From Candidatus Aminicenantales bacterium (GTDB taxonomy: Bacteria; Acidobacteriota; Aminicenantia; Aminicenantales; UBA4085), in NCBI GenBank assembly GCA_049515535.1, contig JBEKTZ010000003.1, positions 248,001-312,000 of the forward strand: 64,000 nt of DNA, read 5' to 3'. The stretch's first letter is position 1; each line of letters begins with the position of its first letter. The position numbers are program-made. Below, piece by piece: positions 36,001 to 42,000 of this stretch.

Positions 36001-39000
36001 TTGCTCAGGCCGTAGCCGCGCTCAAATATCAGGCCCGGCATTCTCACCTGCGGATTATTATATGTTTTCTGCAATTGGCTCATTCTAATGCCTGCGCTCT
36101 TTGCAATATTTTCAGTGCTGAATATCGGCTCCACGTTTCTTATTCGCGCGTTTGCCGGCTTTAAATTATATTCATTGATCAGCGCTTGCCTTTTTACGCT
36201 TATCTGCGCACGATACTCGTCGGCCTGCCTGTTGCGCGCAAAGATGTTGACGAAGTCGGGGTGCAGCCTCGCTCCCTCTTCCGGAATCATCATCTTTGAG
36301 TCGCCTTTCATTGCGGCAATGTAGTTATGCAGGTTAAGGCCGGCATAAGGATTGACATAGGAGCTTGGATAGCTTAGTGAGTTATTTTGGCCTGAATTTG
36401 TCGGGTCATAAGGATATGGATCTATGTAATTTGGTATTCCATCTCCGTCCCAGTCCTGCCCCATAGCGCCATACCATCCTGACATGCATGGCCCGAAGTA
36501 GCCCCAGTCGCTTATCTGGGCAAACCAGTCCAGGCTGCGGAACATCGAGCCATAGCCAAAATGCCAAGGCCAGGCTAATCCCCAGGATATGCCCGGGTTA
36601 ACATTGATTGGCATCATGATTGTTCTCGGGTCCATCAACGCGACGATGGGGTCAAGATCAGTCTCTAATGTCAGTATTAGTTTACCCGTCTGTTCCGTCA
36701 GGGTTATGAAGTCCGCATCAACATTCCTGACTTCTTTTTTCGCGCCATTAATGTCGTATGTCATGTTGTCGTAAGTTGTTCTTCCGTACACTCTGATAGC
36801 GCAGTTTTGTTTGTTAATGGCTTCCTTTATCCTCTTAATGGCTTGCGCGTTCAGGCCGAACCTGAAATCTTCGTGAACATTGACCATGATATTGTTTCCG
36901 CTCTCATCCACGCTGTTGTACACTACTAATGGGAGGTTTAGGTCGCTTCGCAGGTTAGTGTCCTTGTAATCCGCCGTCACTTCGCCAGTGAGAGTTACAA
37001 GTCTGCCCGAAATGAATTCACTTGGCGTGATTACTCTTTTTTCCAGAGGAATCGCGCATCCTGCGAGAGTTATTGATGCCGCCAGAAGGGCGATAAGCGC
37101 CGCCATGTTTCTTCTTTTCATGGTTTGCCTCCTGTTTTCATTGTCTGGCTCCTGTCCATTTTTTATGCAAAAACCATGCCAAATTTCAAGGCCTGTCATC
37201 CAGGCTGGGAGGAGCCCCGGATGTGGCATAAATGGGTCAATTGTCCTCGAGTTCACATTCTTGACTTCGCGCCGAAGCCGGCGATATAGTCGTTTCGCGA
37301 TGGGAGCGCCGATTCCGAGCTAGGCGGGAAGGAAAGCCGCACGGCGCAAAAAAGCGGATTCCCATGCCTTGATCATCCCGTGTTCGGGCTTTGCGGCTTT
37401 GACAAATTCTTGACAAACTTTTAACACGCCGTTGACAAGTCGGGACGGGGGGCGCGATATCCTTCATATGAAAATCGTGTGCCAGGAGGAACCGCCATGA
37501 CTCTGATCCGAGAGACGGCCGTTGTCCTGACCGCTCTGTGGCTCGGGGCGTCCGCCCTCGCCGCCCGGCCCGCCGCGCCGCCCCGCCTGCGCGTCCTGAC
37601 CGTCAACGTCTGGTCCGGGCTCGACTACGAGGGATTCGCCAAGTTCGGCGAGTACGAGCCGCGCGAACGGCGCGAGCACCGGTTCACCGTCTTAGTGGAC
37701 CGGATCAAGGCCTTGGCGCCCGACATTGTTTTCCTCCAGGAGGCGAATACCGCCGCCCGCTTCGCGGCCCGCCTGGCCGGGGCGCTCGGCTTCACCGAAA
37801 TCCATCAGGTCGAGAACGGCGGCATCAAGCTCGGACCCCTCGGCGTGCCGTCGAACTTCAAGGAGGGCATGGCCATCCTGGCCCGGCCGTCCCTGCGGCT
37901 GCGGCGGCACGACGTGTGGAAGCTCTCGGGCCCGTTCGGCCTCTTCGGCGATTTTCTCACCTTCCACTTCGCCGAGGCGGTGTTCTCGCTCGTGGGTAAG
38001 GTCATCGTCGACGAGACTCCGATTTTCCTGGTCAACGTCCATCTCGTCGCCTCCGCGGCGGACGACGAGGCGCTCTTTGCCCGCTTCCGGGAGACGCTCG
38101 AGGGCCGCGCCCTCTCGCCGGCCGACTTCGCGGCCGTTGTCGCCGAGACCAAGGCCAAGAACCGCCGCCGCCTCGACGAGGCCCGCAAGCTCCTCGCCGG
38201 CGTCCGGGAGCTACCCGCCGACAGCCCCGTGATCGTGGCCGGGGACTTCAACGCCGACCCGGAAACGCCGGCGGTCCGGGCCGTGTTGTCCGTCGGGGGC
38301 ATGATCGACACGCTCGCCGCCGCCGCGACCGCCGGGCCGGCCGACGGGGCAGCGGCCCATCCGATCACCTGGGACGCCGGGGAAAACGAGAACATCGCCT
38401 TTTCCAGCCGCCCGGTCAACGCCTCGGGCGCGCCGCGGCCGCCCCTTGGCCTGCTCGACGCCTTCGATTGCGGGATCAGCCGCCGGCTCGACTACATCGT
38501 CCTGAACAAGGGCTTCCGGCCCGAGGATGTCGCATCCTCGTCGGTCGCCGTGGATGCGCCGGAATCCGGGATCCACGCCTCCGACCATTACGGCGTCTTC
38601 GCCGAAATCGATCTGGAGCGTATCCTCGCTTCCGCCCCCAAGGAGCCGGCCACGGTCGTCCCGCCCAAGGGGTTCGGCAAGGAATTTTTCCCGATCCTGA
38701 TGTGGGATACGGATATTGGGTTCGGCTACGGGGCCAAAGGATTCCTCCTCAACCCGCTGGGCCTCTCGGAGTCGTTCGACCTCACGGCCTTCAACAGCAC
38801 CAAGGGCGAGCGCTGGTACCGGTTCGTCTTTTCCCTGCCCGACTTCGAGACGCGGCAGGGGAAGATCTACCCCCTAGCCTTCGACCTGACGATCGACTAC
38901 GACAAGATGATAAAGAACAACTTTTTCGGCGTGGGAAACGCCTCCCTCTACGCCGACCGCGTGTCCTATACGCGGGAGCCCGTCGAGATCAGCCTGACCC

Positions 39001-42000
39001 TGAGCCGGGGGTTCACGGCGACGACCGTCGGCCAGGCGGGCCTGAAATATGCCACGGTCCGCAACAGCCCGCCGGAGGGCCTGGCGCTTCCCTCAGGCCT
39101 GGACATCGGCCGCGCTTCGTCCGTCTCGATTTTCGGGAATATCCGCTACGACAGCCGGGACAGCTTCATCCACCCGAGCGAAGGGATCGTCCTCCAGGCC
39201 GAGGCCGAATACGCGCCGAAGGCCGGGGCGAAGACGGTCTCGTTCACCCGGGTGGCAGGCTGGTTCCAATACTACACCGTCCTCTTCGAGCCCAAGACGA
39301 TCTTCGCCTTCCGATTCGGCGGCCAGAACCTGTTCGGCGACGACCTGCCCAGCCAGGTGCTGCTCTCGCTCGGAGGCAACAACACGCTGCGCGGCTCGCC
39401 CCAGGACCGCTACCTCGACAAATCCCATCTCCTCATGAACGCCGAGGTCCGGTTCCCCATCACCGGCCGCTTGGGCGGCGTCGTCGGCCTTGATATGGGC
39501 AAGGTCTGGCCCTCGCTCGGGAGCATCGATTTCCGGAAGTGGGCCGCAAACCCGACGCTCGGCCTCCGCTACTACATGAAGACCTTCGTCGTCCGGATGG
39601 ACGTGGGCCTGGGCGCGGACGCCACGGGACTCTATTTCAACTTCGGGCACATCTTCTGACAAGTCGTCGCGGAGAATTTCAGTGACAGATAACTCAACCC
39701 CTAAATTCCGATTTGTCGAATTTCGGTATTGCGTTGACTGTCACTGAAATTAAAATTATTTAGCGATTACAACGCAAAATTGAATTCCAGAATGCCGCTC
39801 ACTTTGATCGGCCGATCCTTGTTAAGGAAAGGCTTGAATTTCCACTTCTCCGCTGCCTCAACCGCGGCCTCCTGAAAAAATGGAAGCCCGTTTAGCGCAT
39901 GAGCAGAAACCACGTTGCCGCCTTCATCCACCACGATCTCTACGCGCACTGTTCCGGATATTTGCGCGGCTTTGGCTTGAGGCGGGTAATTTGGGCTTGC
40001 TCTATAGATGGCGTTCTTGTTGAGGATGTCGGTGGAAACAATCTGCGGTTCCCCGGATTTTGCTATATCCGATGAAGGCTCTTTAGGTGTCGTTATAAAC
40101 GAAGTCGGTGGAGCCGGCCGAGTCAGCATCTCTGGTTCGATTCGATACTTTTTCTCGCCGTCTTTAAGAGCCAAACCCGAAGCGTTCTTGGGAACCACAT
40201 AGACAAGGGCAAGCTTAGATTCGGGAACGATGAGCTTTCCCGTGAAGAACCACTTTCCGTTTTTTGGTCTTAGAGCTCCATCAAACCTTATTTCTTTATT
40301 GGATAACGCGCCCTCTCTTGTAGGGCTTCCGAAGAAGACGAGGGTAAACTCGTTTCCCTTTGAGTCAACGAGCGTGAGATTAACAAGCTTGGGTAGGACA
40401 TTTGCCGCATCTAAGATCTCAATCTCTTCAAACTCAAGGTTTTTACACTCGAAACTGAGAACGTAGACAATCTCTTCTGAATTTGGCGAGATGATCCCTT
40501 CATCGGTCGTCACTTTATCCCAGTTCTCGATTTTTGTGAGGTCGCCCAAAGATGTCTTTATCGGCAACCTCGCTTTTTCGGCACACGAAATACAAAGCAC
40601 CAGACTAAGAACGAGAATAAAGATCTTTGCTTTCCCCATCTTGTTTCCCTCCTCTGCGAAAAAAAGCGGAGGCCACTTCGCGACTTCTCAGCGAAATCCA
40701 TAGGAATTTGCTTTTTCGCGGCGCACCGTCTTCCATCCCCTTACGCTCGGAATCTGCACCGCCTTTCACGAGAAGGATATTCTTGGCTGCCGGTCAATGT
40801 CAACCCAATATGCTATTTTTAGAAAAAGCGGATTCCGCCTAAAACCAAAAAAATCCTCTTTTTTTTATCCGCCGCCTTTAATCCGTCCCGCCTAATCCAC
40901 AACCAAAACGCTGTAGATGTAAATCTGAGGGATCGTCGCCGTCAGCCGGCCGTCATTGAAGCTCCATCGAATGCGCCCGCCGTCGGGGACGAGCTTCACC
41001 GTCTTCGGCTTCGCGGCGAGCTTCATCCGGATCACGATCGGCCCGACCCGCGGGATGAAATCCGTGAAATTATGCCGGTCGGGGAGAGGCATGTTCGCCC
41101 GATTCAGCAGATGAACGCTCGTCTTCCCGTCGCTCGTCGTCCGGAGGGCGATATCGACCACCGGCGGCGCGTTCACGAACACCGCGGGCTCCGGAAACAA
41201 TTCCCGCGTCATCCTGTCGATGAACTGCCGCACGTAAGGATGATGCCCTTTGAAAAAGATATTCGCCAACGGGCCGAACACCGCCCCGATTTTCCCCTTG
41301 CCGTAATTCACGATCGTCGCGGCCGCCTTCCCTTCCTTGCGCATGTCGCGGGTCGCATATCTCCAGCCCACGACCTTCGCCGTCGTCGGCGCGACGTCCT
41401 GCCATTCTCCGTCGATGGCCGCCGGACCCACCCCCGTGGCCAGCTCGCCGCTCGCGTTTTGGGCCGCGCCCGTGAACTTCACGCCCAGCGCCGGCTCGAA
41501 CAGCCGGGCGCATTTTTCGCCCATCAGCAACAGGCTTCCGCCCTCCTCCGCGTATTTCAGCAGCGCCGCCCGGAATTCCTGTGTCAGCTTGGGCGAATCC
41601 GGCACCACGACGAGCGGGAATTCGGCCAGCCGCGGCCCGAGCTGGTGCTCGGCCAGGATATCCACCGAATAATGAAGCTCCAGCAGCGCGTCCAGCGCGC
41701 CCTCCAAATCGTCATAGACGCCGCCCGACGGCGCGAAAACCCGGTCCGACCTGTCCCAGTACGACTCCGACGACAACAGCAGCGCAACCTGCGGCACGCT
41801 CCGGCTCTTGAAGCTCGCCTCTTTCCGCGCCCTGCAGAAATCCGCGACCCTGCCTTCCTGGTCGATGATCGCGTCCGCGATATACCCCGAGCGCGTGGGC
41901 TGATGGTAGATCTGGAACCCGCCGCCCTGCATCAGCACCACGGCCGCTTCCTGCTCGAGCTGGGCGGGCGTCTTGATCGACCAGCCCTGGTCCTTGCCCT

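Follow-up and report, generated by a model that had tools for sequence, protein, structure and literature searches.

Omp85 proteins have been known for inserting and translocating other proteins, and their hallmark is a loop-6 motif of the (V/I)RG(F/Y) type together with a strand-13 G-x-D-x-G motif; studies of PlpD and TAM now connect some of them with lipid homeostasis in the outer membrane. For the POTRA-less 'Metallo' and 'noNterm' subfamilies we know of no established function.

The 'Metallo' Omp85 proteins were defined by the combination of PF00149 (calcineurin-like phosphoesterase) with PF01103, and the part of the defining paper drawn on here lists no POTRA for them (Heinz & Lithgow 2014, PMC4104836). 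The window, a stretch of 64,000 nucleotides from a Candidatus Aminicenantales genome, encodes a fusion that, like the 'Metallo' proteins as far as that part describes them, sets a metal-dependent phosphoesterase on a noNterm-related Omp85 barrel with no POTRA listed. Its enzyme, however, is an EEP domain (PF03372) rather than PF00149, which sets the two apart by their domains. PF03372 had no matches in the supplements of PMC4104836, no EEP-Omp85 appeared in its table, and no paper on such a fusion was recognised, from titles and the openings of abstracts, in the openly accessible literature (subscription journals being outside the scope). Since the POTRA-less 'Metallo' combination is already present in the part of PMC4104836 drawn on, the fusion is a further enzyme-Omp85 architecture and not, as the first-pass annotation had it, the second class beside PlpD.

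PlpD likewise carries its enzyme N-terminal to the barrel; in the sections of PMC11116518 used here its patatin domain is shown to be periplasmic and the protein affects phospholipid levels, and a periplasmic, lipid-directed role is likely for both proteins. According to the same sections, PlpD is a homodimeric Ser-Asp acyl hydrolase with a POTRA, whereas the fusion is a metal phosphoesterase that lacks the patatin domain and single POTRA of PlpD. The nearest NCBIfam barrel type is the noNterm Omp85 (Leptospira paralogues, PMC11358297; NF047779), matched at 116.8 bits, below the 200-bit cut-off; noNterm proteins lack an N-terminal domain, whereas the fusion carries a 340-aa enzyme and falls outside that type. 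Nor does it belong with BamA/TamA, in which at least one POTRA precedes the barrel (BamA model TIGR03303, 21.6 versus a cut-off of 297).

Pfam placed Exo_endo_phos at residues 34-364 (E 1.2e-18) and Omp85 at 419-676 (E 2.3e-16) of the 720-aa protein, with no POTRA match anywhere in it. In the AlphaFold2 model of the whole fusion (pLDDT 91.7, pTM 0.88) the EEP fold spans residues 30-372 and is followed by 16 strands at 394-716, nothing folded lying between. H364 and P399 are 35 residues apart in 80 of the 89 proteins in which both motifs were matched, a spacing too short to hold a POTRA. The architecture first proposed for this gene (signal peptide, intact EEP, linker of about 20 residues, Omp85 barrel, no POTRA) is thus borne out by the ORF, Pfam, the alignment and the model. 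A search that scored 8000 candidates gave 303 clusters at E<=1e-10; both PF03372 and PF01103 are present in all of the best 120, of which 118 are 685-768 aa long, 117 have a hydrophobic N-terminal stretch (by our own threshold) and one has a lipobox-like motif. Stand-alone EEP and barrel-only proteins exist besides the fusion. An EEP joined to a POTRA-less Omp85 barrel is a conserved family with its catalytic set intact, and its outer-membrane anchoring is judged right. Of the initial reading as a whole, this anchored family and envelope lipids as the best substrate guess stand, while the second class, a type Vd or exit role, the phosphate link and a widespread occurrence are wrong or lack support.

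Table 1. Features of the fusion gene and its surroundings, in window coordinates.
Feature	Position	Strand	Remarks
Adjacent two-component pair	32630-35256	-	different system from the pair at 53875..56806
Four direct repeats TT(G/A)ACA	37399..37437	+	11-bp period; 60 nt upstream of fusion-gene start
Fusion ORF	37497-39659	+	720 aa
Signal peptide, Sec-type	37497..37562	+	residues 1-22; ALA cleavage site, no cysteine; read from sequence
EEP (DNase I-like) phosphoesterase domain	37584..38612	+	residues 30-372; Pfam, alignment, model, fold match
Three inserted loops/hairpins	37620..37970	+	residues 42-53, 109-121, 146-158; conserved hydrophobic tips
Linker, fixed length	38613..38675	+	residues 373-393; no POTRA; AlphaFold2 model and spacing
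Omp85 barrel, 16 strands	38676..39659	+	residues 394-720; noNterm-type, loop-6 LRGS motif, C-terminal Phe
Periplasmic turn T5	39288..39299	+	residues 598-601; Y-P-x-T in the family, here E-P-K-T
Membrane histidine kinase	53875..56115	+	746 aa; GAF, HisKA, HATPase; orthologue of kinase adjoining fusion gene elsewhere
Response regulator	56120..56806	+	228 aa; candidate reader of both boxes
Second four-fold 11-bp-period box	56826..56864	+	upstream of lipid operon
SPT/BioF-family PLP acyltransferase	56859..58181	+	start probably 56922, because the listed ATG lies within the box
UbiA-family prenyltransferase	58209..59198	+	
YegS/DAGK-family lipid kinase	59200..60126	+	
ThiL-like (AIRS-family) kinase	60114..61184	+	below ThiL cut-off
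MacB/FtsX-type ABC permease + ATPase	61166..62988	+	
DUF3419 protein	62985..64000	+	continues beyond window end; GNAT gene next

Residues N37, E82, H182, D250, N252, D332, D363 and H364 are invariant in all 80 aligned sequences, S362 is kept in 79, and 47 of 48 fused EEPs retain the whole catalytic set; the DNase I-like fold with the N, E, D-x-N, D and D-H set marks the domain as a member of the EEP superfamily. In fold searches human nSMase was among the best matches (Z 25.8, rmsd 3.3, 264 aligned), tied with TDP2 and uncharacterised EEPs, and with nocturnin within 1.2 Z. The nearest sequence profiles were 3teb (E 1.8e-17) and TDP2 (1.2e-12); TDP2, nocturnin and the bacterial EEP phosphatases 3teb, 3g6s and 4c1r are closest by profile and tied or nearly tied in fold. 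Their matches are confined to the EEP core, while the signal peptide, the barrel and the three inserts are the fusion family's own. Neutral and bacterial (SMase C) sphingomyelinases share with this EEP the fold, the catalytic set and hydrophobic hairpins as a design, at 16-22% identity, although the SMase C hairpin is C-terminal (PMC9710629) and those of the fusion are N-terminal inserts. The SMase C model TIGR03395 was matched by one of 55 members (E 1.5e-4) and not by the domain studied, which matched no NCBIfam family; the clusters that the ESM Atlas named for it were all generic EEP ones. AP endonuclease/exonuclease III was rejected, both as a family (of 55 members, TIGR00195 matches 17 and TIGR00633 matches 15, best E ~1e-8, with no match to the domain studied) and as a fold (Z 19-21 versus 25-26 for the best matches). 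The hydrophobic-tipped inserts are, from their sequence, a candidate membrane-contact surface, and the enzyme may act as a diesterase or a monoesterase, on a substrate suggested by context and fold.

The 16-stranded C-terminal barrel, matched by PF01103 above cut-off, superposes on that of TamA (4n74; Z 25.0, rmsd 3.4, 290 aligned, residues 393-720 of the model on 264-576 of the chain). R632, G633 and D666 of the loop-6/strand-13 motif are invariant, and at the fourth loop-6 position 74 of 118 matched proteins have S and 34 have Y/F, a variant of the motif. Turn T5, periplasmic by strand count in the model and by the TamA register, distinguishes fused from barrel-only proteins: P599 and T601 are kept in 48 of 50 of the former versus 9 of 47 of the latter. 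Of the 121 barrel columns that are conserved when the EEP is fused, those that lose most conservation in barrel-only kin are Y598 (0.84), T601 (0.77) and P599 (0.70), against a median of 0.09, and losses in the long outer loops are smaller. Such a pattern favours periplasmic docking over type-V export, and T5 is a candidate docking site for the fused EEP. When the model is superposed on TamA/BamA, linker residues 383-393 fall on the POTRA side, a placement towards which AlphaFold may lean; together with the T5 pattern, the pTM of 0.88 for the two domains and the constant spacing, this argues that the enzyme domain probably lies inside the cell envelope. Tested on independent pairs, of which there were only three, the T5 motif gave p 0.5, and no fused-only conserved surface matching T5 was found on the EEP; both count against docking. 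In a mutual-information analysis of 186 fused sequences (effective 117) variable columns dominated the signal, which was discarded as noise. Its top inter-domain pairs touch one variable L4 residue and were given no weight.

The repeats upstream of the fusion gene recur before a lipid-building operon 17 kb downstream, which follows a second two-component pair and comprises SPT-like, UbiA, lipid-kinase, ThiL-like, ABC, DUF3419 and GNAT genes. Four-fold TTGACA arrays occur twice in the 3.45-Mb genome and not at all in three shuffles. By matrix, the two boxes score 34.1 (fusion gene) and 37.2 (operon, the best in the genome), against 19.3 for the next unrelated site and at most 16.5 in shuffles, and the box is present in 25 of 62 related loci versus 0 of 186 shuffles. 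We take the box to be likely of the OmpR-family regulator type and infer that the response regulator before the operon binds both copies; its counterpart at locus L007 matches OmpR/PhoB-type models below cut-off, and orthologues of this pair flank 19 of 34 fused loci. Scanning for sigma-70 promoters gave a single site, at 37261-37290, versus 0.4 expected, and this site plays no part in the argument. The pair beside the fusion gene, earlier labelled PhoR/PhoB-like, lies below both NCBIfam cut-offs (PhoB 221 versus 296, PhoR 187 versus 334), and the label was rejected. The proposal of phosphate scavenging through it lacks support: its kinase shares with the conserved neighbour kinase only the catalytic core and no box was found around phoU (C7:135-152 kb, best score 5.2; pstS not located).

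The SPT-like protein is closest in the PDB to Sphingobacterium SPT (E 3.8e-98 versus 2.7e-89 for AONS/KBL) and scores 427 on the NCBIfam SPT model, below its cut-off of 640. The DUF3419 protein is presumably BtaA-like, and the GNAT product, with only generic GNAT clusters in the ESM Atlas, is assumed to resemble bacterial ceramide synthase. The operon may encode a hitherto unreported bacterial lipid; the openly accessible literature yielded no paper that brings together sphingolipids, SPT and Ignavibacteria and nothing relevant on DUF3419/BtaA. The ThiL-like gene, taken as the operon's marker, was found in one of five fusion-bearing relatives and in one of ten further genomes with the fusion; conversely, G037, G043, G045 and G061 have the operon but no fusion, all these counts being from incomplete genomes. 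An SPT family search matched all ten fusion genomes, none above cut-off, and also the E. coli and B. subtilis controls, and was therefore uninformative.

With moderate confidence, we regard the fusion as an outer-membrane-anchored periplasmic lipid phosphoesterase within a lipid-remodelling regulon, its topology, substrate and regulator being predicted. Sec would export the protein and the barrel would insert into the outer membrane, serving as anchor and perhaps lipid-handling partner, not as exit pore. The EEP would stay in the periplasm, held by the fixed linker and docked on T5, with its hairpins contacting the inner leaflet. Its metal centre would cleave the phosphate ester of a lipid head group, as a phospholipase C/neutral-sphingomyelinase-like diesterase or as a lipid-phosphate phosphatase. 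A dedicated two-component system would turn on the gene together with the lipid-synthesis operon, and such co-induction would place the fusion in the service of outer-membrane lipid remodelling; the shared box points to this, not to secretion or phosphate scavenging. The lipid link also draws on the nSMase fold, the hydrophobic hairpins, the PlpD precedent and gene neighbours. Lipid-operon genes lie within ~6 kb, in differing arrangements, in 9 of 62 loci, and at L135 the operon of a stand-alone EEP of the same subfamily also encodes a YegS kinase, an S1P lyase (E 4.7e-195) and a GDPD. Other stand-alone EEPs adjoin MlaFED (L111 group) or DUF3419 (L161), although most of the 78 such loci lack a lipid gene and L135 is a single locus. 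Also against this reading count the rarity of the operon in fusion genomes, the SPT-like score, the fold ties and an equally frequent 5'-nucleotidase neighbour.

A bolder and rather doubtful extension would give EEP-Omp85 the outer-membrane part in a pathway, so far undescribed and under two-component control, by which a sphingolipid-like phospholipid is both built and edited (SPT-like condensation, lipid kinases, DUF3419 amino-carboxypropyl transfer, PLP decarboxylation, methylation, ABC export), with the POTRA-less barrel offering inner-leaflet lipid to the docked enzyme. If so, many 'noNterm' Omp85 proteins would be lipid-handling barrels after enzyme loss, not protein insertases. With its predicted docking motif, predicted regulator box and co-regulated lipid operon, EEP-Omp85 offers a compact single-chain test case, on which heterologous expression and lipid assays could address the role of POTRA-less Omp85 barrels.

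In 10 of 62 loci the 5'-nucleotidase, which is T9SS-tailed, lies within ~6 kb, as frequent a neighbour as the lipid genes, and in L014, L017 and L045 the same box precedes it. With TDP2 and nocturnin among the nearest solved relatives, these loci would fit a periplasmic barrel-anchored (oligo)nucleotide phosphoesterase that salvages nucleosides and phosphate with the co-regulated secreted nucleotidase. We consider this unlikely, given that the nucleotidase query had no match in the genome studied, that the box there marks the fusion gene and lipid operon only, with 5.2 in the phoU region, and given the hydrophobic hairpins and the lipid-catabolic context of L135.

The fusion, intact or broken, occurs in 5 of 60 relatives sampled, and all named loci come from metagenome-assembled genomes of uncultured hosts, so that 'widespread' was an overstatement. 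Barrel-only forms, the close ones 45-62% identical, occur in 18 of the 60 and retain the Omp85 core motifs; no close EEP was found in ten barrel-only genomes. A quick IQ-TREE barrel tree, whose very long outgroup makes the root unreliable, implies at least 4 fusion/fission changes (12 in the best tree), with barrel-only kin apparently nested among fused forms. The barrel-only forms, these changes and small OMP gene neighbours in 8 of 62 loci would suit a barrel that works on its own as an accessory Omp85, inserting or translocating neighbouring OMPs; the EEP would be an optional passenger, joined to it because the genes lay close together in an operon, and mechanistically uncoupled. That view is quite improbable in the face of the fixed linker, the fused-only T5 motif, the nearly always intact catalytic set and the L143 group (one lineage), where an EEP from outside the fused clade precedes another noNterm Omp85 by 20 nt. 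A type-V-like autotransporter, its barrel sending the EEP to the surface to attack external lipids or nucleic acids, is likewise quite improbable: the passenger precedes the barrel, the loop-6 RG motif is kept and the linker has an extended stretch of 14 residues that could in principle span the membrane, but fused-only conservation sits at a periplasmic turn more than in the long outer loops, the model (possibly biased) puts the linker on the POTRA side, the passenger is globular alpha/beta, and the type Vd precedent invoked at first has been overturned, the PlpD enzyme itself being periplasmic in the sections of PMC11116518 used. The genome also holds a separate BamA-sized Omp85 gene.

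The gene under study encodes a 720-residue protein with a signal-like start, in which Pfam places an EEP domain at residues 34–364 and an Omp85 domain at 419–676; the genes on both sides lie on the minus strand. A word-seeded homologue search, in which 8000 candidates were scored, returned 303 clusters at E<=1e-10, and all of the best 120 carried both PF03372 and PF01103. Residues N37, E82, H182, D250, N252, D332, D363 and H364 were invariant in an alignment of 80 members, and the catalytic motifs lined up with those of TDP2 in a profile alignment. The AlphaFold2 model (pLDDT 91.7, pTM 0.88) comprises the EEP domain (30–372), a short linker and 16 strands (394–716), and its barrel superposes on that of TamA in the expected register (Z 25.0, rmsd 3.4, 290 aligned). 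The architecture proposed in the first-pass annotation (signal-like start, EEP domain, Omp85 barrel) therefore stands, as does the absence of a POTRA domain, which is upheld by Pfam, by the short linker and by the H364–P399 spacing of 35 in 80 of 89 matched proteins.

The same annotation had called such proteins a second class of enzyme-bearing Omp85 proteins. This label is wrong, since POTRA-less phosphoesterase–Omp85 proteins are already in print. Among the ten bacterial Omp85 subfamilies of Heinz & Lithgow (2014; PMC4104836) are “Metallo” and “noNterm”; the main text and Table S2 give for Metallo 14 proteins with PF00149 and PF01103, list no POTRA family for them, and noNterm is suggested as their source. 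PF00149 is termed a metalloprotease in that text, whereas in Pfam it is the calcineurin-like phosphoesterase family. PF03372 does not occur in the four supplement files of that paper, and our literature searches found no publication on an EEP–Omp85 fusion. The fused protein is built like Metallo, yet is not a member, and would work like PlpD as now understood, again without belonging to it. In Hanson (2024; PMC11116518), the patatin domain of PlpD is shown to be periplasmic and a role in outer-membrane lipid homeostasis is proposed. The function of noNterm is left open in Bettin (2024; PMC11358297), and a 2026 preprint (PMC13119328) links TAM to phospholipid transport.

In terms of fold, the enzyme scored equally (Z 25.2–25.8) with BVU_0621, human neutral sphingomyelinase, TDP2 and two uncharacterised EEPs, above AP endonucleases (Z 19–21) and inositol 5-phosphatases (Z 15–17); no NCBIfam family fits the domain. 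Three inserts (42–53, 109–121 and 146–158) have conserved hydrophobic tips, in fused and stand-alone EEPs alike. We liken them to the aromatic hairpin by which SMase C is described as binding membranes (PMC9710629), an analogy of our own between non-homologous hairpins.

The neighbourhoods of stand-alone EEPs were surveyed at 80 metagenome loci. One of these (L135) encodes a YegS kinase, an S1P lyase (E 4.7e-195), a HAD protein, the EEP, FAD oxidases and a GDPD; it forms a compact lipid-catabolic operon with a lipoprotein-like EEP, and FadR is also present. A near-identical group of EEPs adjoins MlaFED, the EEP of L161 adjoins DUF3419, and in one lineage (L132, L141, L143, L145 and L146) a separate POTRA-less Omp85 lies 20 nt downstream of the EEP. 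Telling neighbours were absent at most of the other loci.

Within the set of 62 genome loci, 19 of the 34 fused ones with a flank of >=3.5 kb had, upstream, a membrane kinase whose sensor region is homologous; of the loci that were partial or had the barrel only, 2 of 12 did. Its orthologue in the window's genome, 53% over 740 aa to that of locus L002, lies 14 kb from the fused gene and is followed by a regulator at 56120-56806 and then, at 56.9–65 kb, by SPT-like, UbiA, YegS kinase, ThiL-like, ABC, DUF3419 and GNAT genes. Two arrays of four TT(G/A)ACA repeats with an 11-bp period were the only ones in the 3.45 Mb genome, and three shuffles contained none. Such direct repeats are read by OmpR/PhoP-type regulators. 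With a matrix built from other genomes' sites, themselves chosen by the same motif, these two arrays came out on top (37.2 and 34.1); the next site scored 19.3 and shuffles at most 16.5. With a matrix from the window's genome and three relatives, the box was found at 25 of the 62 loci and in 0 of 186 shuffles, ahead of the fused gene, lipid genes, a nucleotidase or an OMP. None was found in the phoU region.

Features of the window and the adjoining contig
Feature	Position	Strand	Location	Basis
TPR-bearing histidine kinases	25509-27617
Two-component pair, kinase TPR-bearing	32630-35256
469-codon ORF	35847-37256	minus
First repeat array	37399-37437		upstream of fused gene	array scan
Fused gene	37497-39659	plus
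CHAT-TPR and sigma-factor genes	43095-51858		between fused gene and regulon partners
Conserved histidine kinase	53875-56115
Second repeat array	56826-56864		before SPT-like gene	array scan
Lipid operon with kinase and regulator	53875-64000 and G000:C3:312000-313100

We lean slightly towards a barrel-anchored periplasmic lipid phosphoesterase within a two-component-controlled lipid-remodelling regulon. Neighbours at the 62 loci included lipid-operon genes (9), a T9SS-type 5'-nucleotidase (10) and a small OMP (8). The nucleotidase neighbours and the box ahead of the nucleotidase speak for nucleotide salvage, in which the fused enzyme would act together with the nucleotidase; we consider this reading unlikely. 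The kinase of the two-component pair nearer the fused gene (32630-35256) shares only its core with the conserved neighbour kinase. Several TPR-bearing histidine kinases cluster upstream, and weaker 11-bp direct repeats precede some of their genes (near 27690 and 30162; scores of 10–12, within the shuffle range).

Several counts speak against a tight coupling of the preferred lipid phosphoesterase to the lipid operon. The ThiL-like marker and UbiA each occurred in 6 of 60 relatives, both together in only one (G014) of the five fusion-bearing relatives. Four relatives that lack the fusion, G037, G043, G045 and G061, carry the operon; in G061 a distant noNterm barrel lies 1.7 kb from it. The marker was found in 1 of 10 further fusion genomes, on the same contig as the fused gene. 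The fused enzyme therefore does not require this operon's product and may act on a general envelope lipid instead. The operon, with its MacB-type ABC genes, is conserved in those four relatives and in several Ignavibacteria/Bacteroidota loci, some of which add a PEMT–DUF3419 fusion, a PLP decarboxylase and a radical SAM enzyme. It is undescribed and may make an unreported lipid. The SPT-like protein matched a Sphingobacterium SPT best but scored under the cut-off of the SPT family model; we take DUF3419 to be BtaA-like and the GNAT ceramide-synthase-like, and the decarboxylase presumably acts in the lipid pathway. The stretch that encodes two CHAT-TPR proteins plus one ECF-like sigma factor, with 29–34% GC at 43–46 kb, is possibly an insertion. 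In the 469-codon ORF (48% GC at 36–37 kb), an internal Met is followed by a lipoprotein-like signal; the ORF also has a DxDGDG-like motif and matched nothing in Pfam or NCBIfam.

The two halves also occur apart. An exhaustive profile search added 148 representatives, fragments included: 35 with both domains, 73 with EEP only and 40 with barrel only. Whole barrel-only genes with signal peptides reached 45–62% identity. A quick barrel tree with an unreliable root, built from 50 fused rows and 36 that had the barrel only, showed 12 switches of label, at least 4 of them forced; barrel-only rows mostly sat on longer branches. In the EEP tree (FastTree), all 48 fused rows fell into one clade (support 98) together with 35 stand-alone rows, and 49 stand-alone rows lay outside it. 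A single fusion with repeated later loss would fit these patterns, with the direction not proven. In locus L036 (P0147; L036:5923-7335) no more than the first 68 EEP positions are left ahead of an intact barrel; this gene and that of L069 carry in-frame internal EEP deletions, possibly a snapshot of enzyme loss. A close EEP was found in 0 of 10 barrel-only genomes, with one weak match. Of the 60 relatives, 5 had the fusion (intact or broken), 2 EEP-only genes and 18 a barrel-only paralogue. The nearest named loci are labelled Ca. Aminicenantes and others Ignavibacteria/Bacteroidota, all metagenome-assembled. The fused gene is interrupted by a stop or frameshift, through assembly error or real decay, in L002, L006, L010, L019, L022 and L056. 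Five catalytic residues were replaced in 1 of the 48 fused EEPs, probably P0152, a member with a divergent barrel end and long branches. That the EEP is an uncoupled passenger on an accessory Omp85 seems to us improbable.

Barrel conservation was compared between 50 fused and 47 barrel-only proteins over 121 conserved columns, with a median loss of 0.09. The three largest losses were Y598 (0.86 to 0.02), T601 (0.96 to 0.19) and P599 (1.00 to 0.30), which make up turn T5, the connection from strand 10 to strand 11, on the periplasmic side by strand count; the window's own protein has E at 598. Mean loss was 0.02–0.09 in the long outer loops and 0.16–0.17 in the short hairpins L1 and L8. A phylogenetic pairs test of the T5 loss, with 3 pairs only, was not significant, and no reciprocal fused-only patch emerged on the EEP. 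On rigid superposition, linker residues 383–393 fall on POTRA-side residues of TamA and BamA, a placement towards which the model is possibly biased. Taken together, the fused-only conservation of T5 and the linker position favour a predicted periplasmic enzyme docked beneath the barrel; export of the EEP to the surface by the barrel is, marginally, the least probable of the readings.

A further fusion was noted at L197:815-7168 (genome G063), where a single ORF of ~2100 aa carries DUF748 and TamB together with POTRA repeats and an Omp85 barrel, in a TamB–TamA-like arrangement; the domain scan covers this locus, and similarly long ORFs occur in L196, L198, L199 and L204.
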